From Rhodobacter capsulatus SB 1003 (GTDB lineage Bacteria > Pseudomonadota > Alphaproteobacteria > Rhodobacterales > Rhodobacteraceae): a stretch of 32,000 bases of DNA. The notes beneath the pieces were generated by a model that saw only the letters and a list, made by a program, of their open reading frames with translations, was not told where the DNA came from and did not search any database. The stretch is taken from positions 30,001 through 62,000 of the forward strand of contig NC_014035.1 in the NCBI RefSeq assembly GCF_000021865.1. The letters are read 5' to 3'. Positions 5,142-20,478 of the stretch are shown here, one piece after another; the stretch's first letter is position 1, and every line of letters begins with the position of its first letter. The translations under genes were made by a program, and so were the position numbers.

Positions 5142-6172
5142 GGCAGGTCGAAGGAACGGAGCTGGTCTGCCAGTTGCTCGGCGCCGTAAAGCGTGCGGAT
5201 CGAGGGGTTCATCGCCGCCCCGCTCATCACCGCGATGCGCCCCGCCTTGACCGCCTCCATCTGGCTGACCGCCGGATCGGAGGTCAGCCAGGCGATCTTG
5301 GTGTCGGCCCGGTCAAGGTCCCAGCGGTTGCGGTCCACCTGCGCGGCGACGAAGACGGTGGGATTGGCGGCCATGATGCCTTCCCAGCCCAGGGTCGGCC
5401 ATTCCGCCTCGGTCCTGATCGCGTTGGAGCCGCCAAGCAGATCGGCGATGTAGCCCGAAGGCCCATGGCCGCCGCCCAGATAGGCATCGTCGGCAGGCGA
5501 GGGGCTGGAGAACCAGAACAGGAAGGTCAGATCCTCGCGCGGCGCGAATTCGGCGCGCAGGGCGGCCTCGCGGGCCTTGAAATCGGCGATCACCGCCGCG
5601 CCGCGCTCGGCCACGTCGAAGATGCGCGCCATGTCCTCGATCTCCTTGTAGAGGAGGTCCATGGACCACAGATCCTTGCGGACACCATAGGCAGAGCTCG
5701 CCGCGCTGCCGTTCGCGCTCTGCGTGTCGGCCTCGGTGGTGCAGGCACTGGGCGAGAGGTAGGTCGGGATGCCGAGCGCTTCCAGATCTTCACGCTTGGT
5801 GACCTTGCTGTCGGGCCCCATCAGCGTCACCAGCATGGCAGGCACGAAATCGGGCTGCTGCGCCAGCACCGCTTCAAGCGTCGGGAATTCGACCGTCAGC
5901 ACCTCCACCTTGTCATGCGCCGCGGCCAGCTCCGGCAGGACGCTGTTCGGCCAGAAGGCGGTGGCGGCCATGCGATCCTCGAGCCCCAGCAGGAGCAGGA
6001 TCTCGGCGCTGTTCTGCCCCAGCGCCACGGTGCGCTCGGGTGCTTTCGCGAAGGTCACCTTTTGCTCGCAATTCTCGATGGTGAGGGGATAGCTCGTCCG
6101 CTCGGCAAGCGCGGCGGAGCAAAGGCAGGAGAGGGCGACGCCACCCAGAATGGCGGTCTTGAGGGGCAACAT
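5138..6172 (-). CDS. Periplasmic substrate-binding protein of a FecCD-type ABC importer
   Basis: The track ORF 5138..6457 has an implausible 95-aa Arg/Pro-rich extension. Internal ATG 6172 gives MLPLKTAILGGVALSCLCSAALA (signal peptide) followed by a mature sequence colinear with the 856..1866 protein. Confidence 0.85.
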   Translation of the reverse strand: MLPLKTAILGGVALSCLCSAALAERTSYPLTIENCEQKVTFAKAPERTVALGQNSAEILLLLGLEDRMAATAFWPNSVLPELAAAHDKVEVLTVEFPTLEAVLAQQPDFVPAMLVTLMGPDSKVTKREDLEALGIPTYLSPSACTTEADTQSANGSAASSAYGVRKDLWSMDLLYKEIEDMARIFDVAERGAAVIADFKAREAALRAEFAPREDLTFLFWFSSPSPADDAYLGGGHGPSGYIADLLGGSNAIRTEAEWPTLGWEGIMAANPTVFVAAQVDRNRWDLDRADTKIAWLTSDPAVSQMEAVKAGRIAVMSGAAMNPSIRTLYGAEQLADQLRSFDLP

Positions 6173-6192
6173 GGGGGAGGGTCCGGTTTCCG

Positions 6193-6214
6193 AGTGAAAG
6201 AGTCGATTTTCACT
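6193..6214. promoter_or_regulatory. Perfect 7-bp-arm inverted repeat AGTGAAA-N8-TTTCACT, candidate operator of the 6172..3343 operon
   Basis: It lies 21-42 bp upstream of the binding-protein start codon. A related palindrome GAGTG-TTT-CACTC is at 6239..6251. The cognate regulator is unknown. Confidence 0.3.
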
Positions 6215-6322
6215 ATCCCCGCAACCCGCGGAACTCAAGAGTGTTTCACTCAGGAACTGCGGGCGAAACAGGGGCTTTGTTGCACAACGCCGACGTGCGG
6301 CGGTGTGGCACCTTTTGCCCCC

Positions 6323-7183
6323 GACTGGAGGGTGACCGGCGGCCTGCGCTATCAGCGCGACGACGTGGAGCGGCGCGGCACCACCAGCTTCACGCCCGAG
6401 GTGCTGGATTACGACCGGAGCTTCGATGCCTGGCTGCCGAAGCTTGCGCTGACCCATGACCTGAACGACACCACCAGCATCGGCGCGATGGTCAGCAAGG
6501 GCTACAACCCGGGCGGGGTGACGCTTGGCTTCGTGTCAAGGCAATATGTGACCTTCGAGCCGGAAACGGTCTGGAACTACGAGCTTTTCGGCCGCACGAA
6601 GCTGTTTGACGAGCGGCTCGACCTGACCGGGAACCTGTTTTACAGCCGGATGAAGAATGCGCAGCGCTATGTGACCTCGGTGATCGAGGGCGGCTATACC
6701 GATGCGGTGACCGTCAATGCCGACAAGGCGGAATCCTACGGGATGGAGCTGGGCTTCAGCTTCGCGGCGCGCGACGACCTGACCCTGCGCGGCAATCTTG
6801 GCCTTTTGCACACCGAAATCGTCAGCTTCGAGAATGCGCTGGCCGATTACGAGGGGCATGAATTCGGCCGCGCGCCCAGCCGCACGCTCAGCCTTGGTGC
6901 GGATTGGGCGATCCGTCCCGATGTGACGCTGGCGGGCACGGTGCGTTACACCGACGCCTATTTCTCGGATGACACCAATGCGACGGCGCTTCTGATCGAC
7001 GCGCATACCGTGGCCGATGCCCGCGTGACCTGGACCCCGCGCGAGGATCTGTCGCTTTTCGCCTATGTGAACAACATCTTCGACGATCGTTCGGTGACCA
7101 ACCTGCGGTCGCTGCAGGGATCGCTGCAGGGCACCGTGGTCGATCCGCGCTCGGCCGGCGTCGGCCTGAAAATGACCTTCTGA
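6323..7183 (+). pseudogene. TonB-dependent receptor, C-terminal ~286 aa only (plug and N-terminal barrel missing)
   Basis: This is the tail of track ORF 5174..7183: DWRVTGGLRYQRDD...GYNPGGV...NLFYSRMKNAQ...YVNNIFDDRS...AGVGLKMTF*, with a terminal aromatic residue. Everything upstream of about 6320 in that ORF is antisense to the binding-protein gene, so it is not part of this protein. Confidence 0.75.
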
Positions 7184-7190
7184 CCGACAG

Positions 7191-7220
7191 CCCGGCCCCG
7201 GGACGCTCTTCGGGGCCGGG
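7191..7220. terminator. GC-rich hairpin between convergent gene remnants (bidirectional terminator candidate)
   Basis: CCCGGCCCCG-ggacgctctt-CGGGGCCGGG, a 10-bp perfect stem 8 nt after the receptor-fragment stop. There is no clear U-tract. Confidence 0.45.
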
Positions 7221-7241
7221 CGAAGGCGGGCATCCGCCGGA

Positions 7242-7943
7242 TCAGGGCAGCAGCGCGCCGTTCAGCCGGTTCTGGGCGTGGATCTGGATGAAGACCTCGA
7301 ACATATGCGCATCAAGGGGCGCGGTACCACCCGACAGCGCCGCCTCGACCAGATCTATCGGGATTTCGCTGTGCGGCATCGAGGCGGTGATCTGGTCGCG
7401 CACCGCGGTGATCAGCGCGCGCGGGGTCGCATCGCCGGGGGCGCGCAGGCAATGCGCGGTGACGGTGGTGAAATAGCCGATCGTGTCGAACCAGGCCGGA
7501 TCGGTGCGGCCCGCGGCCGAGGTGCCGATGGTCAGCGCCTCAAGCCCGGCCAGCCGCTGCAGCGCCACAGAGATCGCCGCATAGACGGTGTTGAACAGCG
7601 AGGCCGAGCAGGTCTTTGCCAAGGCATGCAACCCGGCGCAGACCGCGGGCGGCACGGCGATTTCGCACCAGCCGCCCGCCGTCGCATCCTCCGGGGCCGC
7701 ATCCTCGGGGGTCGCGGGCCGGGACGCTGCGCCCGGGGCACGGATCGGCTGCGGCGGCGGCGCGTCGCGCAGAGCCGTGACCCAATGTTCCAGCGACCGG
7801 GCGTCGATGCCGGCACTGGCCCGGGCGCGAGCAAAAGCGTGAAACGGTGCGACCGGTCCGGCCCAGTCGGGGGCCCGTTCCGCCGCCCGGGCGGCATAGG
7901 CGCAGGCCAGCTCGGCCATCATCAGGTTGAGCCTGACCTCGCC
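7242..7943 (-). pseudogene. NRPS-type condensation-domain protein, C-terminal half only
   Basis: The C-terminal part of ORF 7242..8225 shows C-domain motifs after the His motif: LMMAELACAYAA (post-C3), SLFNTVYAAISVALQRL, IGYFTTVTAHCLR (C5-like IGxFVNT..R) and HSEIPIDL (C6-like). The catalytic HHxxxDG region and everything N-terminal of it is absent, replaced by IS-derived sequence. Confidence 0.6.
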
Positions 7944-7981
7944 CCTCAGGCCTTCGCGGCGCTTCCCGCTGAATCGTCGGT

Positions 7982-8575
7982 CTTGGCTACAACGCCGAGG
8001 GGCAACTGATCCGGCCGTTACATCGAGGAGGCGGACCGGATCGACCGTCAGGAAACCGGCGCGGCGCGGGCCGAGCGGGCGGCCCATCTGAAGGGGCGAT
8101 ACCATGGCATTCGTCAGCAGATCGAACGTTTGCTGGCGATGGAAAAGGCGCTGGACGATGCGCCGGACGGGCAAATTTCGCTGACCGACCCAGATGCCCG
8201 GGCGATGGCAACGCGCGCGCAGCACAGACGCTATTGGCGCGGCGGGTGTTCAAGCTGCGAAATCAAACGCCGTTGCACGACGATCCATGAAGGACGGGGG
8301 GCTCTGAACGACGGGTTTCGCGGTGGGAACACGAGCATCTGGTCGAGGCATCGGATGCGCGCCGACGCAGCGCCGGCGCGCCGATGCGGGTGCGAAGATC
8401 AACCGTCGAGCACCCGTTCGGCACGATCAAGGCCTGGACCGGGTCCTGCCATTTCCTGACCAAGCGGTTTCAAGGGGTGGGCACGGAAATGGCGTTGAAC
8501 GTGCAGGCCTACAACATCAAGAGAATGATCTCCTTGGTGGGCATGCCGAGGTTGGTGGCTGCAATCCAAAGGTGA
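7982..8575 (+). mobile_element. IS1182-like (IS5 superfamily) transposase remnant, frameshifted and internally deleted
   Basis: Fragments occur in different frames: YIEEADRIDRQETGAARAERAAHLKGRYHGIRQQIERLLAMEKALDDAPDGQISLTDPDARAMAT, then ...CEIKRRCTT..., RWEHEHLVEA and MRVRRSTVEHPFGTIKAWTGSCHFLTKRFQGVGTEMALNVQAYNIKRMISLVG. The DDE catalytic core between SLTDPDA and the Cys-rich/VEHPFG tail is missing. Confidence 0.7.
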
Positions 8576-10037: not shown

Positions 10038-10631
10038 TCAGGGGGCCAGCTTCAGGCAAGGGGCATCCGGCGCGAAGAACCGGGTCGCATCATGGCTGGT
10101 CTCGATCAGGGCAAATCCCGTTTCCGCCCGGCTTCGCTCCAGAAAATCCCTGCTGCGCGCGAGGCTCTCGGGGTCGAGCCCCGAGACAGCCTCGTCCAGG
10201 ATCACAAGATCCGGCCGGATCGCCAAGGCGCGCAGCAAGGCCACCCGTTGCGCTTGCCCCTTCGACAAGAGCGGCGCAGGCAGCGCGGCACAGGCGCCAA
10301 GACCCAGCTGATCCAGCGCCTCTTGCAGCCAGACCGTCTGCGGCCGGGGCAGCGGCAGGGCGACGTTGCCCCGCGCCGAAAGGCCGGGGATCAACCTTGG
10401 CTCGGCAAAGGCGAAGCCGATGCGAAGCCCGGGCTTGCGGATGACCTCGCCGCGAACCGGGCTGGGCAGACCCGCAAGATGGCGCAACAGAGCCGTCTTG
10501 CCCGCGCCGCTGGCGCCGTTCAGGCGCAGGCTTTCCCCGGGGCCGAGCGTCAGCGCCAGCGGACCGAAAAGCGCGCGCTGATGCCCCGGGGGGCACAGGC
10601 CGAGCGCGGTTGCACGGATCAGCATGGTCAT
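10038..10631 (-). CDS. ABC transporter ATP-binding protein, short (197 aa), NitT/TauT-type operon
   Basis: The start is taken at MTMLIRAT (ATG 10631, an ATGA overlap with the permease stop). It has Walker A GASGAGKT, signature variant LSKGQAQRV, Walker B LVILDEAVSGLD and H-loop TSHD. Confidence 0.85.
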   Translation of the reverse strand: MTMLIRATALGLCPPGHQRALFGPLALTLGPGESLRLNGASGAGKTALLRHLAGLPSPVRGEVIRKPGLRIGFAFAEPRLIPGLSARGNVALPLPRPQTVWLQEALDQLGLGACAALPAPLLSKGQAQRVALLRALAIRPDLVILDEAVSGLDPESLARSRDFLERSRAETGFALIETSHDATRFFAPDAPCLKLAP

Positions 10632-11386
10632 TTGCGCCGCGCCCTGCGGTCCGCCAGGGCCAGCAGCGCCTCTGCTCCGGCGATCATCAGCAGGACCACG
10701 AAGGTCAGGGCAAGAAGCCGGTCCGTCATCAACCATGTCTGCGCCGACTGGATCGCGCGGCCAAGTCCCTGACCGCCGCCCAGAAGCTCGACCAGCAGGG
10801 TGATGCGCAGCCCGTTGGCCACGGCGACACGCAGCGCGGGCATCAGCGCGGTTGCAAGCGCAGGCCACAGGACATGGCGCAACCGCCGCAGGCGGGGGAC
10901 GTGGAACAGCCGTGCCATCTCGTCAAGTTGCGGGTCGATGGCGCCAAGGCCCGCAGTCGTCGCGATCTGGAACACCGGCACAAGCAACGCGGACACGGCC
11001 GCCACCACCATCGTCCCGCCGCCCTCGAGCCAGAGGATCAGCAGAATCGCCAGCACGGCCGCGGGCAGACCCATCAGGACCAGCCGCAAGGGCGCCAGAG
11101 CTGCGCCGATCAGCGGCCAGCGAAAGGACATCCATCCAAGCACGAGACCAAAGAACAGCGCCAACAGCACGCCGGCAAGCGCTGCGGCGAGGCTGGGCGC
11201 AAGGCTCCCGGTCCAGAATGTCCGCTCCCCCAGAAGTGCAATCAGCGCGCGTCCGACCGCCAGCGGCCCGGGCAGGATTGCGGGCAGTGTCTGCCGTGCG
11301 ATCACCTCCCAAAGCAGCAGGAGCAGCCCTGCTCCGGCCAGACCGGCCCCAAGACGCGCCGCCTTGGCGGGAGGAGACGGGCTCAC
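10628..11386 (-). CDS. ABC transporter permease (BPD_transp_1, NitT/TauT/ThiX-like)
   Basis: GTG start at 11386 overlapping the binding-protein stop (GTGA). The product VSPSPPAKAARLGAGLAGAGLLLLLWEVIARQ... has about 6 TM segments and an EAA-like loop (DEMARLFHVPRLRRLRHVLWPALATALMPAL). The long N-terminal extension of track ORF 10628..12001 is rejected. Confidence 0.8.
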   Translation of the reverse strand: MSPSPPAKAARLGAGLAGAGLLLLLWEVIARQTLPAILPGPLAVGRALIALLGERTFWTGSLAPSLAAALAGVLLALFFGLVLGWMSFRWPLIGAALAPLRLVLMGLPAAVLAILLILWLEGGGTMVVAAVSALLVPVFQIATTAGLGAIDPQLDEMARLFHVPRLRRLRHVLWPALATALMPALRVAVANGLRITLLVELLGGGQGLGRAIQSAQTWLMTDRLLALTFVVLLMIAGAEALLALADRRARRK

Positions 11387-12312
11387 TTTCGGATCCCGGA
11401 GGCATAGAACTCCGGTCCCGGCAGCGTGCCGCCGATTGCCTGCGGGGCGAGGTCGAAGATCTCGCCGTAAAAGGCCCTCAGGGGGGCAGCATCGGCGGGC
11501 ATGACCAGAAGGCTGGCGGTGATGCCCGCAAAGGCCGATGCCCCGGGCCCGGTCGAGAGTTCCGGAAAAAAGCCCGCCAGAAGAGCATGTGCCTGCCCCG
11601 GAGTGGCCGCGAGGTCCGAATGAGCCGTTTCCAATGCCGTGACGATCTTTCCGCGCGCAGGCAAATCGGGGCTTGCAAGCAGTGCGCCGCCGGGCGGGCA
11701 GGCCGTCGCGCCGGTGGCTTTTTGCCAGAGCGGACACAGATCGGAACGCCGCCGCAATGTCGGGTCCGCCGCGAGCGCCGCACTGGCCATCGGTTCGGCC
11801 AGAAGCGCGAGATCCGCCTTGCCGGCCAGCAGCATCTGCATCGAAGCCGGATAGGCGCCGGTGTAAAGCGGTTGCCAGGCCGTTGTGCCAAGAATTCGGC
11901 GCAGCATCAGATCGGGCAGATTGCCCTCGAAGGGCACGGTGATCTTCAGACCGCTCAGCGCTTCCGGCCCATCCAGATCGGAGCCGCGCCCGATCAGCCA
12001 CAGATTGCCCCCGGTCACGCTGGCCGCAAGAAGATCGCCTTTCATCCCGCGCGCCTGCAACAGGGGCGCCATGAGCACCGGCGCCATCGCCACCACCGGC
12101 CGCCCGGAAGCGAGCTCCTTGCGCAGCGTTTCAGGATTGGTCCAGGGCCGGAAGGTGAAGGTGATCCCGTCGGCTGCCAGCGGTTGTTGCGCGGCAAGCG
12201 CGATCAGCGGGGCCGAGTCCCAGATCGGCGGGCCGGTCAGGATCACTTCCTCGGCTCGCAGGGGGGCGGGCAGGCCAAGAAGCAGCGCGGCGAACAGAGG
12301 GAGCAAGTTCAT
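11383..12312 (-). CDS. Periplasmic substrate-binding protein, NMT1/ThiY/SsuA-like (NitT/TauT family)
   Basis: 309 aa with signal peptide MNLLPLFAALLLGLPAPLRA and a PBP type-2 pattern. It has 4-nt overlaps with both neighbours. Confidence 0.75.
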   Translation of the reverse strand: MNLLPLFAALLLGLPAPLRAEEVILTGPPIWDSAPLIALAAQQPLAADGITFTFRPWTNPETLRKELASGRPVVAMAPVLMAPLLQARGMKGDLLAASVTGGNLWLIGRGSDLDGPEALSGLKITVPFEGNLPDLMLRRILGTTAWQPLYTGAYPASMQMLLAGKADLALLAEPMASAALAADPTLRRRSDLCPLWQKATGATACPPGGALLASPDLPARGKIVTALETAHSDLAATPGQAHALLAGFFPELSTGPGASAFAGITASLLVMPADAAPLRAFYGEIFDLAPQAIGGTLPGPEFYASGIRK

Positions 12313-13352
12313 CTGGGGGGCGCCTTGGGGTCAGAAGGGGAAAGGGATTTGCGGCCCATGTCGACGCGGAACCGGCCGAAGGGCGTTCCGATCCATTTCG
12401 AACTGACGGCAAGGCCTGCCTGTGCCATCGCATCGGCGATCTCGCCATCGTCAAAGGAAACGTCGCGCTGCCACAGCGCGGGCATCAGACGGCCGATCAC
12501 ATGTTCCTCGGGGGCGCAGCGTCCCTCGGTCAGCGTGGCATGCAGCGAGACGAACACCCCCCGAGGCGACAGCCGCTCGGCGATCCGCCCAATCAAGGCG
12601 CTGATCCCCCGATCATGGAAATAGAGCGTCATCGAGGCGAAGATCATGTCGAAGGCCCCTTCGGGCAGCGGATCGTTGTAGCTGCCCGGATGCACCCGCA
12701 CCGACAGTTCCGCCAGTTCTGCCGCGATGCGCTCGGCGACCGGCGGCAGGTCCAGAAGGGTGATCCGCAGATCGTGTCGCAGGGCAGACAAGGCGCGGGC
12801 AAGCGTTCCCGAGCCGGGGCCGATCTCGAGCAAGCTTTGCGCGCTTTCCCATTCCGGCAGACCGGTCAGACACGGAAGCATCACCTCTGCCGCCGCGCCG
12901 CGATGAAACGAGGCAAGGCTTTCATGCGCGCGGTTCCAATAAGCCGCGTCAAACAGCGGCCGCTCCGGAGAGGGCCGCTCCGGCGCCAGAAGCTCGGCGA
13001 TCCGGTCCAGCCCCGCATGCCTGAGCCGCGCCAGCGCCTGCAGGCTGGGGATCAGGCTGGTCGGGCTTCGCGCCGACAGCAGCGGCAACAGATCGGGCGG
13101 CGTCTGGAACGTTTCGCCCGCCCGGTCCAGAAATCCGCAAGCCACAAGGGCGCGCAGGACCAGCGTCAGTCGATCCGGATCCAGACCCTGCGCCAGCGCC
13201 AGATCGGACGCCCCGACTGGCGCCGCGCAAAGATCGAAGAGTCCCGTTTGCATCGCATGGTCGAGCAGGGCAAAGCGGATCGGCCCCTCGATCGTCTCGA
13301 ACAGCACATGCGCCCCCTGATCGCGGCGGGGAGCCGTCTCCGGAGTCACCAT
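12309..13352 (-). CDS. Class I SAM-dependent methyltransferase with N-terminal winged-helix dimerisation domain (O-methyltransferase family-2-like)
   Basis: 347 aa with no signal peptide. The N-terminal region LLDHAMQTGLFDLCAAPVGASDLALAQGLDPDRLTLVLRALVACGFLDR resembles a dimerisation/wHTH domain. SAM motif I is LLEIGPGSGTLA, followed by ITLLDLP and MIFASMTLYF. The start overlaps the receptor stop (ATGGTGA). Confidence 0.85.
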   Translation of the reverse strand: MVTPETAPRRDQGAHVLFETIEGPIRFALLDHAMQTGLFDLCAAPVGASDLALAQGLDPDRLTLVLRALVACGFLDRAGETFQTPPDLLPLLSARSPTSLIPSLQALARLRHAGLDRIAELLAPERPSPERPLFDAAYWNRAHESLASFHRGAAAEVMLPCLTGLPEWESAQSLLEIGPGSGTLARALSALRHDLRITLLDLPPVAERIAAELAELSVRVHPGSYNDPLPEGAFDMIFASMTLYFHDRGISALIGRIAERLSPRGVFVSLHATLTEGRCAPEEHVIGRLMPALWQRDVSFDDGEIADAMAQAGLAVSSKWIGTPFGRFRVDMGRKSLSPSDPKAPPR

Positions 13353-15439
13353 TGCGTCGTCCAGTTCAGCCCGAAGCTGCGCGGCTGGCCATCCTCGACC
13401 AACGTGCCGTAGAACGAGCGCAGCGACAGCGCGGCATATTCCTCGTCAAAAAGGTTGTGCGCCCAGAGCGTCAGCACTCCGTTACCCAGATCGCGGCTGA
13501 TCGAAGCGTCGACGATCCGGTAGCCATCCTGTTCCAGAGTGTTGGCCGCGTCGAAATAGGACGACCCGTAGCCGTTGACTGCAGCGCGCGCACGCCAGCC
13601 ATCGCCGCCTTCCCAGGTCACACCAAGACCGTAACTCAGGTTTGGAGCCATCGGCAGCTGGTTGCCGGAATAATCCACCGGCCCAGCACCCGTGCGGGTC
13701 ATGAAGGAGGTTGCCCGCGCATGCTGCCATCCGAGCGATCCATCAATCTGCCAGCCATGACCAAGGGGGGCGGACAGCGCCGCCTCCAGCCCATAGCTTT
13801 CGGCCTCGGCGGCGTTCGAGATTTTCTGAACCGCGCCCACCACCGTTTCGGTGATCTGCTTGTCCTTCACCGTGGTGTGAAACCCGGTCAGGCTGAGGCT
13901 CGCGTCATTGAGAAAGATGGTTTTCAGACCGATTTCCGCGTTCCAGCTGTATTCGGGCGCGTAGATCAGGCTCGCGGCATTGCCCGCAAAGGCATAGTTG
14001 TAACCAGCGGGCATGTAGCCGCGCGCATAGGAGGCGTGCAGCGTCGTGCGGTCGGAGATATCCCACGCCAAAGTGGCTTTCGGCAGCGGCGTCGTCGTCG
14101 CATCCGAGGCGGCATAGCTGCCCGCCAGCGAGAAGGTCTGGCTGGCAGAGCTGGCGATATGGTCGATCCGCAGCCCGCCGCCAAGACGGAGCCGGTCAGT
14201 CAGCGCAACCTCGCCAAGGCCGTAAAGTGCGACACCGTTTTGCGTGATGCTGGTCACCCGGCGCGCGCCCATTCCGCGCAGGTCGAAATCCACGTCGGTT
14301 GCCTGATGATAAGCGTGAAGGCCCAAAGACCATTTGAACCGTTCGGCGCCCTCGAGCGAACTCAGCCGGATCTCCTGAGAGATCATGCGGTCCTTCAGAT
14401 CGAAAGCCGTCACGGCGACCCCGGGGATTGGCGGGAGCGGGCTGGAATCGGTATCGAGCAGGAAATCGCGATCAAAGGTGGTGAAGCCGGTGATGGTGGT
14501 CAGATCGAACCCGTCCAGGGTCTGGGCATAGTCCAGCGAAGTGACGCTCGAACGGCGGTTTTCCCGGGATGGATCGCTGTAGCGACTTTCGTAGCGGCCG
14601 GTCGCCTGCGGCCCGTCGATGTAGCGATACTGCTCCTTGCCGAGGGTCTCGTCTTCGCCAAGGAAGCTGACCCGCAGCGTGCCACCGTTTTCGAAAGCCC
14701 AGGCCGCCCCCGCCAAGAGGCTGGTTCGGCCTTCGCGTCCGCCATCGTCATCGCCGCCCGGGCGCGGGTCCGAGATCACCCCGTCCGTTTTCGACCGCTC
14801 CAGGCCGAACAGCAGTGCCGGAGCCCCCTCCTTCGCCGCGCCCCAAAGCACCGAGGCGGTATAGCCCGGCGGCTGCGCCCCGGCATCCGAGCCGGAAACG
14901 CCAAAGCCCAACTTGACCCCGGTGAAATCGCCCGGGCGCAGCGTGTCGTAGATCAGCAGACCGGCTTCGCTATTGCGCCCGAAGGCCGTTCCCTGCGGCC
15001 CTTTCAGCAGTGTCACCTGTTCGGCGGCGAAAAAATGCGGCAGTTGCAGCGTCCCGAGCGGCAGGGCGACGCCATTCACCTGGTAACCGACCGGGTCGCT
15101 CAACGCGTTGTCAAAGGCGGAAAGGCCGCGAACCACCAGACGCTCACCGGAATTCGCGCGCTGAAACAGAACATTGCCCGCCCGTGCCGTCACCGCCTCA
15201 AGATCCGGGGCGTTGCGCTCGGCCAGATCCGCGCCGTCAATCACGGTTGCATCGCTGGCGGAGCGCAGCGCGGTCTCACTCCAATGACTGGGTGAGATCT
15301 CGATGGTGCCAAGGTTGGTCGCCTCCTGCGCGCAAAGGCCGACAGGGGTGGCGCCAAGCGCAAGGGCGGCAACCGAAATCAGGACCCCGCGATGGCGCGG
15401 GCCGGGCAGTGGCGGCAAGAAAAGAGGGGCAGGGCACAT
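13346..15439 (-). CDS. TonB-dependent outer-membrane receptor
   Basis: 697 aa with a signal peptide, plug motifs (VVRGLS..., VNGVALP, TLLKGPQGTAFGRNSEAG), a long beta-barrel and a C-terminal ...FGLNWTTQW*. A GAGGA SD lies upstream. Confidence 0.92.
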   Translation of the reverse strand: MCPAPLFLPPLPGPRHRGVLISVAALALGATPVGLCAQEATNLGTIEISPSHWSETALRSASDATVIDGADLAERNAPDLEAVTARAGNVLFQRANSGERLVVRGLSAFDNALSDPVGYQVNGVALPLGTLQLPHFFAAEQVTLLKGPQGTAFGRNSEAGLLIYDTLRPGDFTGVKLGFGVSGSDAGAQPPGYTASVLWGAAKEGAPALLFGLERSKTDGVISDPRPGGDDDGGREGRTSLLAGAAWAFENGGTLRVSFLGEDETLGKEQYRYIDGPQATGRYESRYSDPSRENRRSSVTSLDYAQTLDGFDLTTITGFTTFDRDFLLDTDSSPLPPIPGVAVTAFDLKDRMISQEIRLSSLEGAERFKWSLGLHAYHQATDVDFDLRGMGARRVTSITQNGVALYGLGEVALTDRLRLGGGLRIDHIASSASQTFSLAGSYAASDATTTPLPKATLAWDISDRTTLHASYARGYMPAGYNYAFAGNAASLIYAPEYSWNAEIGLKTIFLNDASLSLTGFHTTVKDKQITETVVGAVQKISNAAEAESYGLEAALSAPLGHGWQIDGSLGWQHARATSFMTRTGAGPVDYSGNQLPMAPNLSYGLGVTWEGGDGWRARAAVNGYGSSYFDAANTLEQDGYRIVDASISRDLGNGVLTLWAHNLFDEEYAALSLRSFYGTLVEDGQPRSFGLNWTTQW

Positions 15440-15536: not shown

Positions 15537-16565
15537 TCAGTTGCGCTGGCTGCCATGGCGGCGCCAGCTGCGCGCGGTCATGCCGAAGCGCTTGCGAAAG
15601 GCGGTGCTCAGATGGCTGGGGCTGGAAAAGCCGCAGTCATAAGCGATTTCTGTCAACGAGCGGCCTTGATGGCCGATCAGTTCTGCCGCTCGCTCCAGCC
15701 GGAGTTCTCGCAAGCGCTCGAAGACGGTCGTGCCGGTTTCGCGACGGAAGCAGCGGTTGAGCGTGACATGGCTCAGGCCCAGATCCTGCGCCAGATCGTC
15801 AAGACTGAAGGTCTCGGCCAGCCGGTCGCGCAGCAGCGCCTCTGTGCGCGCCACCAGCAGCATTGCCTCGGGCATGGCCCCCGCACGGCCCTGCTGCGCC
15901 AGTTCCTCGAAGACATTGCCGACGAGGGCGAGGCAATCTCCCTCCTTGCGCAGCAGCGCCGCCGGGGTGTCGGCGCCATCAAAAAAGCGTTCCGGCAGCC
16001 CGCGCGCCGGACGCGACAGCCGAAACCTGCGCACCATCCCCGGGTCGGGCAATTCCTGCGCGATCACCCGGCACAGCCGTTCCGTGACCGCTTCGGCCTC
16101 GATCACGATGACCAGATTGGAACAGCCCTGCCCGGGATGCAACACACGCGTCAGGGCTTCGGAGTTGGTGCGCAGCACCCATCCCTCGCCGTTGCAGATG
16201 TCGTGATCACGCCCCGCGGCGTCCCGGATCGTCATGATCCCCAAGAGGTTGAAGGCGATCAGCAACCGACCGGCGGGCCAAAGGATGACATCCTCTCGTC
16301 CCCGGCCGGGGGCGAATTGGCTCAGCGCGACCGAGATCCCCGGCCCGAGCCGCAGCAGATCGATCCGCGTTGCAGCGCCGACCCCGGGCAGGGTGATCCG
16401 TGTGGTCTCGCCCTCTCCCGGAAGCGAGCGGGCCGGTTCGATCCGGCCGGAAACAGCCGCGCCCGGTCCCCGGCGATGATCCGGACAGGGGGCCGATGCG
16501 GGTTTGGCGACATCCGCAAAATCAGAAACCCGGCTGCGGGCAGCCGATGACAAGCCAGACTCCAT
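15537..16565 (-). CDS. AraC-family transcriptional regulator
   Basis: 342 aa with a C-terminal double HTH (LDDLAQDLGLSHVTLNRCFRRETG...LTEIAYDCGFSSPSHLSTAFRKRFGMTARSWRR). A strong GGAGG SD lies 4 nt before ATG 16565. Confidence 0.9.
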   Translation of the reverse strand: MESGLSSAARSRVSDFADVAKPASAPCPDHRRGPGAAVSGRIEPARSLPGEGETTRITLPGVGAATRIDLLRLGPGISVALSQFAPGRGREDVILWPAGRLLIAFNLLGIMTIRDAAGRDHDICNGEGWVLRTNSEALTRVLHPGQGCSNLVIVIEAEAVTERLCRVIAQELPDPGMVRRFRLSRPARGLPERFFDGADTPAALLRKEGDCLALVGNVFEELAQQGRAGAMPEAMLLVARTEALLRDRLAETFSLDDLAQDLGLSHVTLNRCFRRETGTTVFERLRELRLERAAELIGHQGRSLTEIAYDCGFSSPSHLSTAFRKRFGMTARSWRRHGSQRN

Positions 16566-16599
16566 AATTCCTCCGATCCGTCACACCCGACGGCTGAGC

Positions 16600-16800
16600 C
16601 AGACTGCAAGGTCGGTCTCCTGACTTGCGGGTCGCTGCCTTCCCGCCCTTCCCATGTCCGGCGTCAGTCCGGGCCACAGTGGATTTTCGGGTCGGCTCGC
16701 CGCTCACAGTCGCGGGGGCGGTCGGATTTGGCTCTTGCCCTCCTGCAAGCCGCAGGCGGGATGGCTGTCCTGTTCCCTGCCATCGGATCTGCGATGGCAC
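16600..16800 (-). promoter_or_regulatory. Cobalamin (B12) riboswitch in the leader of the AraC regulator gene
   Basis: The minus-strand RNA reads ...GGAGGGCAAGAGCCAAAUCCGACCGCCCCCGCGACUGUGAGCGGCGAG...AUCCACUGUGGC...CAUGGGAAGGGCGGGAAGGC...GACCCGCAAGUCAGGAGACCGACC. The B12 box is at 16610..16625. It shares the blocks GCCCCCGCxACUGU, CACUGUGGC, CAUGGGAAGG and GACCCGCxAGUCAGGAGACC with the riboswitch at 2045..2215. I could not identify the P1 pairing by eye. Confidence 0.8.
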
Positions 16801-17029
16801 CATGCACGGACGAAGGCTGCCAGTTCGGGACAGGAAGGTCAAGCTGTCCGGAACGCCCGGCCGCCTCGCCCTCGCGCCGCGGTGCCGCGCTCCGCCGTCT
16901 CTCGACGGCCTGCCGGAAAGTCTTGCCTGGCCGTCGAAGCTGGACCTGACGCGGATCATCCCTTACGGTCGGGAGGGTCTGCTTGCTCGCAGCGGCATCT
17001 ACCCCACCGACGTCCTGGAGGATCTACCT

Positions 17030-18040
17030 ATGAAATTCGTTTCTTTCAAATCCCTTGCGGGAGCCGCGCTTGCGGTCGGCCTGATGGCGCAGGGCGTTGT
17101 GGCGCAAGACCTGCAGTTTTTCAGGATCGGAACCGGAGGCACGGCCGGGACCTACTATCCGATCGGCGGCCTGATCGCGAACGCGATTTCCAATCCGCCG
17201 GGATCGCGCGCCTGCGCGGATGGCGGGTCTTGCGGCGTGCCCGGGCTGATCGCCACTGCCGTGGCCTCGAACGGGTCGGTCGGCAACGTGAATTCGATCA
17301 ACGGCGGCACGCTTGAGGCAGGCTTCAGCCAGTCCGACGTCGCCTTCTGGGCGCAGACCGGAACCGGCATCTGGGAAGGTCAGCCGCCGGTCGAAAAGCT
17401 GCGGCTGATCGCGACCCTTTACCCCGAAAGCATCCATCTTGTCGCCACCAAGGCGTCGGGCATCACCTCTGTTGCCGATCTCAAGGGCAAGCGGGTGTCG
17501 CTTGACGAGCCGGGATCGGGCACGCTGGTCGATGCCAAGATCATTCTGGGCGCCTTCGGCCTGACCGAAGCCGACATCACGCCGGAATATCTGAAACCCG
17601 ATCAGGCCTCGGACCGGATGCGCGACGGGGCGATGGACGCGTTCTTCTTCGTGGGCGGTTATCCGGCCGGTGCGATCGCCGAACTGTCCAGCCAGCATGA
17701 GGTGGTGATGGTTCCGATCACCGGCCCCGAGGTCGATGCGCTGCGCGCCGAATACAAGTTCTTCGCCAATGACGTGGTTCCGGCGGGCACCTACAAGGGC
17801 CAGGACGCCGAAGTGCCCACCCTGTCGGTGGGCGCGCAGCTGGTGACCTCGGCCGATCTCTCCGAAGAGCTGGTCTACGGCATCACCAAGGCGATGTTCA
17901 ACGAGACCACCCAGAAGCTGTTTGCCAACGGACATTCCAAGGGCAAGTTCATCACGCTGGAAAATGCGGTGCAGGGCGCGGGTATCCCGTTCCATCCGGG
18001 CGCCGAAAAGTTCTATAGGGAAGTCGGCGCGATCAAGTGA
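17030..18040 (+). CDS. TAXI-family TRAP transporter solute-binding protein
   Basis: Start at ATG 17030 (GGAGGA SD), giving MKFVSFKSLAGAALAVGLMAQGVVA followed by FFRIGTGGTAGTYYPIGG and NSINGGTLEAGFSQSD, which are typical TAXI (TIGR02122-like) motifs. The track ORF's upstream 135 aa are rejected. Confidence 0.9.
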   Translation: MKFVSFKSLAGAALAVGLMAQGVVAQDLQFFRIGTGGTAGTYYPIGGLIANAISNPPGSRACADGGSCGVPGLIATAVASNGSVGNVNSINGGTLEAGFSQSDVAFWAQTGTGIWEGQPPVEKLRLIATLYPESIHLVATKASGITSVADLKGKRVSLDEPGSGTLVDAKIILGAFGLTEADITPEYLKPDQASDRMRDGAMDAFFFVGGYPAGAIAELSSQHEVVMVPITGPEVDALRAEYKFFANDVVPAGTYKGQDAEVPTLSVGAQLVTSADLSEELVYGITKAMFNETTQKLFANGHSKGKFITLENAVQGAGIPFHPGAEKFYREVGAIK

Positions 18041-18062
18041 TCGGCCTGTTCTGAACCGACCG

Positions 18063-18098
18063 GGAACGCGATCGCGACCGCCGATCGCGTTCCTTTAT
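18063..18098 (+). terminator. Intra-operon hairpin with T-tract between the TRAP binding-protein and permease genes (partial terminator/attenuator)
   Basis: GGAACGCGATCG-cgaccgc-CGATCGCGTTCC followed by TTTAT. The stem is a perfect 12 bp, 22 nt after the stop codon. Confidence 0.5.
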
Positions 18099-18123
18099 CT
18101 ACACGAGCCTTGAGGATACCCCG

Positions 18124-20184
18124 ATGAGTGACGGCAAACGCGCGATGACCGCAGCGGAGCTTGCAGCGATCGAAGAACAGTTCGATCCCGAAGCGCGCTT
18201 TCGCACCGTCACGCGGCCCGTGGCCACTCTGGCGGGGGTGATCCTCTTCGCGCTGGCCTGCTATCACTACTATACCTCCGGTTTCGGCATTCCGCGCGCC
18301 ACCACCCATCGCGGCATCCACATGGGGGTGTCGCTGCTGCTGATCTTCCTCAGCTTTGCCGCGCTGTCCTCTCGGCGCCACAGGACGCATGGTTTTGCCG
18401 TGCTTGGCCTGCCGGTCACGGACTGGCTTTTCGGCATCGGGGCACTGGTCAGCGCGCTTTATGTGCCGTGGATCTATGATCAGCTTGCCTTCCGCATCGG
18501 CAATCCGCTGCAGATCGACGTGGCGATGGGGACGATCCTTCTGGTGACCCTGCTTGAGGCCGTGCGCCGGTCGATGGGCTGGCCCTTGCCCCTCATCGCG
18601 CTGATGTTCATCGGATATGCCTATTTCGGCCAGTCGATGCCGGGGATCTTCGTGCATCCCGGAGCGGACTGGTCGGGGATCGTCAACCACCTTTACCTGT
18701 CGTCGCAGGGTGTCTACGGCACCGCGCTGGGTGTCATCGCGACCTATGTGTTCCATTTCGTGCTGTTCGGGGCGATGGCGCAGCGTATCGGGCTGGGTCA
18801 GTTGTTCATTGACCTGGCGACGGCGCTGACCGGGCGCTTTTCCGGCGGTCCGGCGAAAGTGTCGGTCGTGTCCTCGGCGCTTCTGGGCTCGATCTCGGGC
18901 TCGTCCATCGCCAATACGGTGACCACCGGCGCGCTGACCATTCCCGCGATGATCAAGATCGGCTTCCGGCGTCATTTCGCGGCGGCGGTCGAGGCGGCCG
19001 CCTCCACCGGCGGTCAGATCACCCCGCCGGTGATGGGGGCGGTGGCGTTCCTGATGGTCGAATATCTGGGCATCCCGCTGCGCACCATCCTGATTGCGGC
19101 CATCGTGCCCGCCTTCATGCACTTTTTCGGGGTGCTGGTGCAGGTGCATCTGGAGGCCCGGCGACTGGGCATCCGCGGCCTGCGCAAGGAAGAATTGCCC
19201 AATGCGATGCGGGTGCTGCGCGAGGGCTGGCTGTCGATTCTGCCGCTGATCCTGCTGGTTTACATGCTGATGTCGGGGCGCACGCCGTTTCTGGCCGCCT
19301 TCTGGGCGATCACCGCCTGTATCGTGATCTATGCCATTCAGCGGGTGATGGCGGCGGGGCTGGCCAAGGGCATCCGCGAGTTCGCCGCGGGCATCTACGA
19401 GAGCTTCATCTCGGGCGCCAAGGGCGCGCTTGCCGTGACGGCGGCTGCGGCGCTGGTGGGGGTTGTCATCGGGGTTGTCACGCTGACGGGCATCGGCTTC
19501 AAGATCGCGTTCATGCTGACCAGCGTGGCCCAGGGTTGGGCGGAAAGCACCCATGCTTTCCTCGCCTTCCTGCCGATCGAACTGTTCAGCATGTCCACGC
19601 TCGCACTCTTGTTCACGCTGATGATGACGGCGGTGGTGTGCATCTTGATGGGCTGCGGGATTCCGACGACGGCAAACTACATCATCATGGTCGCCGTGGC
19701 GGCCCCGGTCCTGTCGATGATGAATGTCGAGCCGCTCGTGGCGCATTTCTTCGTGTTCTACTTTGGCGTGCTGGCGGATGTGACGCCCCCGGTGGCGATG
19801 GCCGCCTATGCCGCCGCGGGGATCGCCGGGGCCAATGCGTTCAAGGCCGGCAACACCGCGTTCCGCCTTTCGATGGGCAAGGCGCTGGTGCCGTTCATGT
19901 TCGTGTTCTCGCCGTCCTTGCTGCTGGTGACGGCAGATTTCAGCTGGGGATCGTTCGCGCTGGCGTTCAGCGGGGCCGTGCTTGGCATCATCGCGCTGTC
20001 GGCGGCCATCACCAACTGGCTGCTGCGCCCGCTGCTGCTGATCGAACGGGTGGCTCTGCCGATTGCGGCGCTGCTGATGATCGCGCCCGAGATCATCTCC
20101 ACCGTGATCGGGGCGGCCATCCTGGCGGCGGTGACCCTGCGTCAATGGCTTGCGGACCGCCCCCGATCGCCCGCCGTCCCCTGA
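18124..20184 (+). CDS. TRAP transporter fused small/large permease (TAXI-type, TIGR02123-like)
   Basis: 686 aa and highly hydrophobic throughout. The N-terminus ...EEQFDPEARFRTV... precedes many TM segments, and the gene is immediately downstream of the TAXI binding protein. Confidence 0.9.
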   Translation: MSDGKRAMTAAELAAIEEQFDPEARFRTVTRPVATLAGVILFALACYHYYTSGFGIPRATTHRGIHMGVSLLLIFLSFAALSSRRHRTHGFAVLGLPVTDWLFGIGALVSALYVPWIYDQLAFRIGNPLQIDVAMGTILLVTLLEAVRRSMGWPLPLIALMFIGYAYFGQSMPGIFVHPGADWSGIVNHLYLSSQGVYGTALGVIATYVFHFVLFGAMAQRIGLGQLFIDLATALTGRFSGGPAKVSVVSSALLGSISGSSIANTVTTGALTIPAMIKIGFRRHFAAAVEAAASTGGQITPPVMGAVAFLMVEYLGIPLRTILIAAIVPAFMHFFGVLVQVHLEARRLGIRGLRKEELPNAMRVLREGWLSILPLILLVYMLMSGRTPFLAAFWAITACIVIYAIQRVMAAGLAKGIREFAAGIYESFISGAKGALAVTAAAALVGVVIGVVTLTGIGFKIAFMLTSVAQGWAESTHAFLAFLPIELFSMSTLALLFTLMMTAVVCILMGCGIPTTANYIIMVAVAAPVLSMMNVEPLVAHFFVFYFGVLADVTPPVAMAAYAAAGIAGANAFKAGNTAFRLSMGKALVPFMFVFSPSLLLVTADFSWGSFALAFSGAVLGIIALSAAITNWLLRPLLLIERVALPIAALLMIAPEIISTVIGAAILAAVTLRQWLADRPRSPAVP

Positions 20185-20478
20185 CAGAAAGTCCCCAAAG
20201 CGCCGTGATTGCCGGAAGGCCGGCCTTTCCCGATGACGGAATGACAGCTCTCTTGCTGCGCCATGCGTCATCCGCGAAAAGCCGCTTTCCGCCGAGATCG
20301 TGTCAAAACTTGCCGACTCTGCGACCCGGACAGTCCAGCGCGAGATGGCGGCCTTCAGAGACCGTGGCTGGCTGATCAAGAAACGCCCCGCGGCGCGATG
20401 GACCCGCTGCCGAGGTGGAGGATCGCAAGGTGATCCCCTCCCGCAGATCGCCTTAGCTGACGGTGTTGAACGGGCCAC

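Follow-up and report, generated by a model that had tools for sequence, protein, structure and literature searches.

The 32,000-nucleotide stretch of Rhodobacter capsulatus SB 1003 DNA analyzed here (the window, to which all positions below refer) lies on plasmid pRCB133, and the subject of this study is a cobalamin riboswitch situated directly in front of a gene for an AraC-family regulator, both on the minus strand. The regulator gene (15537–16565, 342 aa, ADE87317.1; araC below) leads a six-gene cassette read from one strand, in which it is followed by genes for a TonB-dependent receptor, a methyltransferase, and the binding protein, permease and ATPase of an ATP-binding cassette (ABC) importer. 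A preliminary description of the sequence had proposed this juxtaposition of riboswitch and regulator gene, and the family searches bear it out: the RNA matches Rfam family RF00174 with 71.6 bits, against a gathering cut-off of 31.5 bits, and the protein contains an HTH_18 domain at E 5e-25.

An Rfam scan of the whole window revealed two cobalamin riboswitches, both on the minus strand. The one in front of araC (16819–16593) has an E-value of 5.6e-16 and covers model positions 1–189, so the RF00174 scan that had been suggested as a check returned a full-model match above the gathering cut-off. The other (2234–2035; riboswitch 1 below) scores 106 bits. The conserved core of the araC riboswitch is complete and was aligned with high posterior probability: it comprises the B12 box AGUCAGGAGACCGACC (16625–16610), which is of the AGYCMGGAGACCKGCC type, the L5 region GCCCCCGC (16719–16712, with the C-rich loop CCCCCG) together with ACUGU, and the CCACUG and GGGAAGG blocks. 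The P1 strands lie at 16806–16799 and 16613–16605, and the aptamer has the long peripheral extension typical of adenosylcobalamin (AdoCbl)-type members. The RNA is thus an ordinary member of RF00174, and all of the sequence blocks quoted in the preliminary description, including the B12 box, the hairpin beside the ribosome-binding site and the GGAGG-N4-AUG at 16565, are present.

The riboswitch ends 28 nt 5′ of the araC AUG on the same strand. The distance to the GGAGG of the Shine-Dalgarno (SD) sequence is 19 nt from the end of the Rfam match, or approx. 30 nt from the end of the P1 3′ strand, and not the 35–40 nt given earlier. The true upstream neighbors are a divergent gene for a TAXI-type binding protein of a tripartite ATP-independent periplasmic (TRAP) transporter, starting at 17030 on the plus strand, and a fused TRAP permease gene; the riboswitch therefore sits in a divergent intergenic region (464 nt), facing araC. 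Two large open reading frames (ORFs) on the minus strand upstream of the riboswitch (17024–17995 and 18013–20478) have no family matches and were discarded as spurious.

Upstream of the aptamer, a −35-like box, CTTGACC (16837–16843, minus strand), is the sole island conserved between R. capsulatus and the related locus of Paracoccus sp. IB05, in DNA that is otherwise approx. 55% identical. We regard it as part of a putative riboswitch/araC promoter, whose spacing would place the start of transcription at about the 5′ strand of P1. Judged from the reading frame, the riboswitch is probably a physical part of the araC mRNA, because no start other than the AUG next to the riboswitch is usable and the frame behind this AUG has been kept open through in-frame insertions and deletions in all lineages.

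The expression platform (16598–16571) consists of a P13-type hairpin, CCGUC-GGGUGU-GACGG (16593–16578), and a CUC (16598–16596) that pairs with the GAG of the SD. The latter (GGAGG, 16574–16570) is separated by a 4-nt spacer, AAUU, from the AUG of araC (16565–16563), the whole element occupying 16574–16563. In the fold predicted for the isolated platform the three central bases of the SD, GAG, take part in pairing (unpaired probability 0.05–0.11), and the SD as a whole is only partly buried. A terminator scan found no terminator-like site between the aptamer and the AUG. A hairpin beside the SD without a terminator fits translational control, as had been assumed in the preliminary description.

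How the aptamer would communicate with this hairpin can be judged from riboswitch 1, which is of equal design: the 3′ arm of its hairpin, CCCGG-GCGGGGUGU-CCGGG, continues into GAGG-N8-AUG, and the hairpin loop can form 6 bp with L5 (−15 kcal/mol), a clear L5:L13 match. By homology, the hairpin in front of araC corresponds to P13/L13, with L5 (CCCCCG) as its canonical partner. The kissing partner proposed earlier, an ACCC within CGACCCGAAAA (16694–16684), is doubtful; this segment is aligned within a helix of the RF00174 consensus structure. The duplex energies with the G-rich loop (−7.4 kcal/mol for L5 and −8.9 kcal/mol for the CGACCCGAAAA segment) do not discriminate between the two partners. 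We infer translational control through docking of L5 on L13 as the best-supported explanation, and not as a demonstrated fact.

Comparison of the window with Paracoccus sp. IB05 revealed 87% identity in the aptamer and 91% in the platform (from the P1 3′ strand to the AUG), against 47% at third-codon positions and approx. 55% in promoter-distal DNA. A 40-nt stretch over the platform (GGCUCAGCCGUCGGGUGUGACGGAUCGGAGG and its flanks) is invariant in all four lineages available for comparison, i.e. the window, a second R. capsulatus strain (locus L048), Paracoccus sp. IB05 (L001) and a short contig (L049). The GGAGG and the ATGG are likewise invariant, and the coding sequence directly after ATGG, unlike the 40-nt core, diverges. 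The variable hairpins of the P4 extension and on the P6 side have changed in a compensatory manner (CG to GC, CG to UA, UA to CG and CG to GC). These data argue strongly, on comparative grounds, that both the aptamer and the platform are under purifying selection.

Three structural observations were made in the same region. The arms of P2 (CCAUCG/CGAUGG, 16793–16776, minus strand) and of P13 (CCGUC/GACGG, 16593–16578) are near-copies of each other, and RNAalifold pairs them across the aptamer, without covariation; this pairing could be an alternative, ligand-free conformer. A GC-rich, terminator-like hairpin with a U-rich tail is found at 16547–16528 (minus strand), within codons 7–13 of the N-terminal extension of the regulator. 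The hairpin is kept at the equal place in Paracoccus sp. IB05 and L049, where the U-tail is lost, and it was rejected as a conserved terminator for that reason. Within the araC coding sequence, at 16011–15991 (minus strand), a further terminator-like hairpin precedes a T6 run; the likeness of this hairpin to a terminator is probably coincidental, the T-run encoding the conserved FF of an RFFDG motif. The three terminator-like sites of the region do not significantly exceed expectation (1.2 ± 1.1).

The regulator itself is an ordinary member of the AraC/XylS family, composed of a cupin-like sensor domain and a helix-turn-helix (HTH) domain (HTH_18, PF12833, E 5.1e-25; HTH_AraC, PF00165, E 1.1e-18; residues 258–336). 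In its AlphaFold2 model (confidence, pLDDT, 79) residues 39–182 form a beta-rich domain. The best Foldseek matches over both domains were ToxT, Rns, CsvR and CuxR (E 1e-11 to 8e-9), and those of the N-terminal part were cupins; according to the model, the protein carries a ligand-sensor fold of the ToxT/Rns type.

The N terminus of the protein provides an indication of how the riboswitch reached its present place. Codons 1–40 (16565–16446, minus strand) form an extension that occurs only in the riboswitch-bearing clade: the alignment of the orthologs (A1) places approx. 40–50 additional residues in these proteins, and the others begin at M-x-[LR]-IEP. Residues 1–38 have pLDDT values below 50 and are predicted to be disordered. 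Between the window and Paracoccus sp. IB05 the extension is 44–53% identical at each of the three codon positions, and therefore evolves neutrally, whereas identity over the remainder of araC is 78% at the first, 83% at the second and 47% at the third codon position. Length differences of the extension among the lineages are all in frame, and the only alternative in-frame start of araC is a TTG at codon 5. The extension is probably former spacer DNA that became coding when the riboswitch, with its SD and AUG, was grafted upstream of the gene; it joins this SD and AUG to the ancestral start, and would thus be the scar of the graft.

The 97-nt gap between araC and the receptor gene opens with a tandem direct repeat, TTTCGCCGAATGGAAGA (15533–15517) and TTTGCCCGGATGAAAGT (15512–15496), two 17-bp half-sites with a 21-bp period located on the minus strand right after the araC stop codon (15533–15496 in total). 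Two 17-bp direct repeats placed two helical turns apart are the classical form of an AraC/XylS activator site. A position weight matrix (PWM) built from 14 half-sites detected the pair, with the same period and in the same place, in 17 loci (among them L001–L012, L014, L015 and L048), including six that lay outside the training set (L001, L007, L008, L010, L011 and L048). Every cassette with downstream genes carries it, the riboswitch-bearing ones included. Neither the remainder of the 32-kb window nor the region upstream of araC yielded such a pair, and it was absent from L013, in which the regulator gene lacks the downstream cassette. We interpret the repeats as the predicted AraC operator of a separate promoter of the receptor operon. 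Together with the protein model, their conservation in this gap makes it very probable that the receptor operon has its own AraC-dependent promoter, by which the link between riboswitch and regulator would be a true cascade.

The first gene behind the operator (13346–15439, minus strand; 697 aa, ADE87316.1) encodes a TonB-dependent receptor of the siderophore-receptor type, with Pfam domains Plug and TonB_dep_Rec. Its best solved relative is FyuA, the yersiniabactin/pesticin receptor (4epa, 1.8e-26), followed by FhuA; at E ≤ 1e-3 the matches in the PDB were chains of FyuA, of an unnamed TonB-dependent receptor and of FhuA. As no BtuB chain was matched at this threshold, the identification of the receptor as BtuB was rejected. 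Its best NCBIfam match is the TonB-siderophore subfamily, below the cut-off of that model. The gene fyuA is activated by the AraC-type regulator YbtA. The stop codon of the receptor gene is overlapped by a gene (12309–13352, minus strand; 347 aa) for an S-adenosylmethionine-dependent O-methyltransferase-like protein, related to family-2 methyltransferases of the DsyB/COMT type (E approx. 4e-9). The cassette ends with a NitT/TauT-type ABC importer (10038–12312, minus strand), composed of a binding protein (12312–11383), a permease (11386–10628) and an ATPase (10625–10038), with overlapping start and stop codons and with a match to 3hn0.

Full-length orthologs of the regulator form a small family. 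A scan of the genome collection yielded 15 orthologous loci, and tblastn showed the six-gene cassette to be syntenic in 12 of them; the exceptions are L001, which is cut by a contig end, L010, with only the regulator and methyltransferase genes, and L013, with the regulator gene alone. The taxa represented include Gemmobacter, Pannonibacter, Agrobacterium, Rhizobium, Xinfangfangia, Pseudogemmobacter, Paracoccus denitrificans, Mesorhizobium, Roseovarius, Roseibium and Salipiger. With the second R. capsulatus strain and a plasmid of Rhodovulum sulfidophilum, the cassette is found in approx. 17 alphaproteobacterial genomes, and as the flanking genes differ from genome to genome, it represents a self-contained module.

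The riboswitch is far more restricted than the cassette. It was detected upstream of the regulator gene in Paracoccus sp. IB05 (7725–7952, 81.2 bits; araC start at 7980); in the remaining 14 genome loci and in Rhodovulum, Rfam scans at the gathering threshold revealed none in front of araC. The leader of the second R. capsulatus strain is almost identical to that of the window. In L049, whose regulator is 72% identical, only 46 nt precede the gene, and these contain the 40-nt invariant core, so a riboswitch is likely to lie upstream there as well. The regulators encoded behind riboswitches share 66–97% identity among themselves and no more than 50% with the other orthologs, consistent with the riboswitch having been acquired once, in one clade comprising R. 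capsulatus, Paracoccus sp. IB05 and probably L049. Searches of metagenomes for the exact 25-nt platform sequence gave no hits, and a metagenome protein-pattern scan with the alignment of the riboswitch clade gave only distant HTH matches; a search of the PLSDB plasmids did not retrieve pRCB133 itself, and only the riboswitch-less Rhodovulum cassette and unrelated cobalamin riboswitches turned up there.

Two of these loci had further peculiarities. In the second R. capsulatus strain (CP198950.1, 10001–11020) the regulator (P0002) differs from that of SB 1003 by a locally frame-shifted stretch at residues approx. 195–230, and the neighboring PepSY_TM, hydrolase, condensation-domain and TonB receptor genes were called as fragments, which could reflect an assembly error or decay of plasmid genes. 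On the Rhodovulum sulfidophilum plasmid (NZ_CP015422, locus L056, 23069–37304) the riboswitch-less cassette stands beside genes for isochorismate synthase, isochorismatase and 2,3-dihydroxybenzoate (2,3-DHB) dehydrogenase, and beside a second TonB receptor gene; the 1.1 kb before araC contains neither an annotated gene nor an Rfam hit. By gene context, these neighbors link the cassette to catecholate siderophores, a link that may explain the catechol-O-methyltransferase-like gene.

Taken together, these results favor (with a probability of roughly 0.62) a two-tier, B12-repressed circuit governing an outer-membrane uptake cassette. Transcription would start just 5′ of the aptamer, from the promoter with the CTTGACC box, and the leader of approx. 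250 nt is predicted by the covariance model to fold as an AdoCbl-type aptamer. When B12 is bound, the C-rich L5 loop would dock on the G-rich P13 loop, as the anatomy of the RNA suggests; the lower stem of P13, which reaches into the SD, would then block ribosome binding, and less AraC would be made, as anatomy and the conservation of the platform imply. The regulator, with its cupin and HTH domains, would bind the 17-bp repeats behind its own stop codon, an operator predicted by comparative genomics, and activate the promoter of the receptor, methyltransferase and ABC importer genes, probably only with a small-molecule co-inducer. The operon would then be expressed only when B12 is low and a substrate signal is present. 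The predicted cascade from riboswitch through AraC to uptake operon is well supported by the comparative data. The preliminary description had envisaged a riboswitch that feeds a transcriptional cascade; this part stands on the conserved tandem operator, but the regulator is a local activator, neither free-standing nor global, and the net logic is still that B12 represses a transporter, with an extra tier.

Several results weigh against this interpretation. No protein of the cassette is recognizably specific for B12 or cobalt, and approx. 15 orthologous cassettes lack the riboswitch, one of them beside catecholate-siderophore genes; the substrate may therefore be just an iron siderophore. The folding energy of the platform equals the mean of shuffled sequences. 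The L5:L13 contact would comprise only 3–4 G-C pairs, is energetically no better than the ACCC alternative, and is left by the invariance of the platform without covariation to test. A scan for consensus sigma-70 promoters upstream found nothing, and the independent riboswitch-bearing sequences number only three or four. Finally, the 97-nt gap between araC and the receptor gene contains no terminator-like site; read-through may therefore make the operon partly AraC-independent, and may add a direct arm that would give a feed-forward arrangement.

An alternative view is that the riboswitch controls one transcript, from araC through the receptor and methyltransferase to the ABC genes, by premature or Rho-dependent termination or by polarity, in the manner of an ordinary B12 riboswitch before a TonB-dependent transporter operon; AraC would then be no more than the product of the first cistron, with the protein tier adding little. 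The genes are co-directional, the gap is short and free of terminator-like sites, and the downstream genes overlap start to stop; moreover, a riboswitch in front of a TonB receptor is the commonest proteobacterial arrangement (PMC7689651). We nevertheless consider this explanation unlikely, as the tandem operator is strictly conserved exactly in the araC–receptor gap of every cassette, which argues for an AraC-dependent promoter, and riboswitch-less cassettes have an equal layout, so that the receptor operon is evidently independent of the leader upstream of araC. A single transcript and a two-tier circuit are not mutually exclusive; combined, they would constitute a coherent feed-forward loop.

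The circuit could also be as proposed but differ in its mechanics, B12 acting mainly on transcription elongation or mRNA stability (through Rho loading on the untranslated leader, or through the terminator-like hairpin in the first codons, 16547–16528), or P13 exchanging partners with the arms of P2. The U-tail of that hairpin, the P2–P13 pairing found by RNAalifold and the only partial burial of the SD are consistent with such mechanics, which we regard as improbable: the U-tail is not conserved in Paracoccus sp. IB05 or L049, terminator-like sites are not significantly enriched, the P2/P13 alternative lacks covariation, and the invariance spans hairpin, SD and AUG, as expected under translational control. 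That the riboswitch has no regulatory role, having been left as an inactive relic or inserted by chance, or that it acts in trans as a B12-responsive small RNA or sponge (compare Listeria Rli55/AspocR and Enterococcus EutX) and not on araC, is very improbable. The arrangement is indeed rare (three or four lineages), and fragments of cobalamin riboswitches accumulate as small RNAs in R. capsulatus, from loci that are not identifiable in that report (PMC5546546). The strong family score, the intact core motifs, the 87–91% identity of aptamer and platform against approx. 47% at neutral sites, and the single usable AUG, whose frame stays open through in-frame changes in all lineages, all speak for a functional leader acting in cis. 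The conservation, the compensatory changes and the CTTGACC island are together a strong argument against a relic.

The setting of the cassette is a metal and siderophore uptake island. Past the importer genes lie a hydrolase gene, a condensation-domain fragment of a non-ribosomal peptide synthetase (NRPS), a truncated TonB receptor gene and a FecCD-type ABC system, and beyond the latter an EamA-family transporter gene and then riboswitch 1 with its BtuF-like gene; the opposite flank is the nos cluster. The truncated receptor gene (plus strand), in which only the C-terminal barrel is matched, and the lone NRPS fragment (7242–8225, minus strand) fall within 5174–8225, and these pieces look like remnants of a decayed siderophore cluster. 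In the case of riboswitch 1, an AUG at 2000, behind the P13-like hairpin and GAGG, begins a 50-codon ORF (2000–1848, minus strand). This ORF is read in a different frame from the BtuF-like Peripla_BP_2 gene and overlaps its ATG (1866) by 19 nt. This riboswitch may gate the upstream ORF, with translational coupling, rather than the binding-protein gene directly.

The substrate of the cassette bears on the meaning of the circuit. The cassette is a widespread siderophore-type module, normally without a riboswitch, and its riboswitch-less copies, together with the Rhodovulum copy beside catecholate genes, point to ordinary siderophore uptake as the ancestral role. No iron box of the form TGA-N9-TCA was found in 16566–17029, this pattern being only a crude proxy for an iron-regulator box (Fur, RirA or Iron-Rhodo), and no common motif was seen in the regions upstream of araC in the riboswitch-less orthologs. 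R. capsulatus makes B12 and depends heavily on it. The placement of the cassette under B12 control suggests, as the most economical reading, that the riboswitch clade uses it for cobalt (as a metallophore complex) or for a corrinoid-related compound. Riboswitch-preceded TonB receptors have been predicted to take up cobalt, none of which has been confirmed (PMC7689651). We can propose only tentatively that, among R. capsulatus and related bacteria, the cassette is an importer of a cobalt metallophore or a corrinoid precursor under an RNA–protein AND gate or coherent feed-forward loop. If so, synthesis of the activator would be licensed by B12 scarcity, sensed through the riboswitch, and the activator would have to detect the imported substrate as well; one graft of riboswitch and start codon would have shifted a siderophore-type module from iron to B12 control. 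The locus would then offer a candidate, the first amenable to experiment, for a TonB-dependent receptor dedicated to cobalt, as well as a clear natural case of a regulon's top input being exchanged from protein to RNA.

Riboswitches usually gate enzyme or transporter genes directly. The riboswitch described here appears instead to gate the local activator of such an operon, an arrangement that would bring in a further input, the co-inducer, and an element of delay or memory. The comparison of approx. 15 riboswitch-less cassettes with one clade that has an in-frame riboswitch, SD and AUG captures an evolutionary event, and a B12-linked hint (cobalt or corrinoid supply) is now attached to a widespread, uncharacterized cassette of FyuA-like receptor, methyltransferase and NitT/TauT-type importer. 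As R. capsulatus SB 1003, whose plasmid carries the locus, is a model organism amenable to genetics, every step of the proposed circuit is open to standard fusions and deletions. A literature search of incomplete coverage, outside which the 2003 surveys of the B12 regulon fell, found nothing specific on a B12 riboswitch preceding an AraC gene, no cobalamin riboswitch directly gating a local AraC activator of a TonB-dependent uptake operon and, within the same limits, no description of the R. capsulatus locus itself. Both the components and their logic are known ones. The proposed two-step circuit, RNA first and then protein, is uncommon and was found only in R. capsulatus and a small number of related strains and species; its novelty lies in the wiring, with an RNA sensor in place of an iron regulator atop an AraC cascade, and the visible scar of its acquisition.

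The nearest relatives of the RNA tier are the btuB riboswitches of E. coli and Salmonella, through which AdoCbl represses translation of a TonB-dependent receptor. They share with the present system the RNA family, the expected logic (B12 represses outer-membrane uptake), a translational platform whose hairpin lies at the SD, and an end target that is a TonB-dependent receptor. They differ in that the riboswitch described here precedes not the receptor gene but that of an AraC-type activator with its own operator before the receptor operon, and the receptor is FyuA-like and not BtuB-like.

B12 signaling from RNA to PocR in Listeria is indirect and proceeds through an antisense RNA. The preliminary description took this for the only close parallel, which was overstated. 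Both AspocR/PocR of Listeria monocytogenes and EutX of Enterococcus use an RNA sensor to relay B12 status to a transcription regulator (of the AraC type in the case of PocR), but they act in trans or antisense (as antisense RNA, or as a sponge for an ANTAR protein), whereas the riboswitch in front of araC would act in cis, from the 5′ untranslated region of the regulator's own mRNA. Other precedents exist. According to PMC4991794 (citing Borovok et al. 2006), the nrdABS operon of Streptomyces coelicolor is under a B12 riboswitch and nrdS encodes an AraC-like regulator; a cis-acting B12 riboswitch thus sits on a transcript for an AraC-family protein, but two enzyme genes come before nrdS, the final cistron, and regulation there is at the level of transcription. 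In R. capsulatus the regulator gene is the first, and possibly the only, directly gated cistron, and its predicted target is the adjacent uptake operon. Similarly, the Vc2 cyclic di-GMP riboswitch of Vibrio cholerae is located directly upstream of tfoY (bioRxiv 10.1101/617340) and is likewise an off-switch in the leader of a transcription-regulator gene; its ligand and RNA family are different, and TfoY is a broader regulator rather than a local activator of an adjacent transport operon.

For the protein tier, the appropriate comparison is with the AraC-type regulators of siderophore systems. Rodionov et al. described alphaproteobacterial ‘araX’ genes beside ferrisiderophore genes, with four ‘araX’ genes in R. 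capsulatus, and proposed cascades from an iron regulator through AraC to an uptake operon (PMC1698941). These systems (YbtA–FyuA, PchR–FptA, AlcR, RhrA and ‘araX’) resemble the cassette described here in that the araC gene adjoins genes for a FyuA-like receptor and for transport, in their tandem-repeat operator, and in the presence of an upstream sensor that controls the araC gene. They differ from it at the top tier: the siderophore systems have a protein that senses iron there (Fur, RirA or the Iron-Rhodo-box factor), and the cassette described here has an RNA that senses B12.

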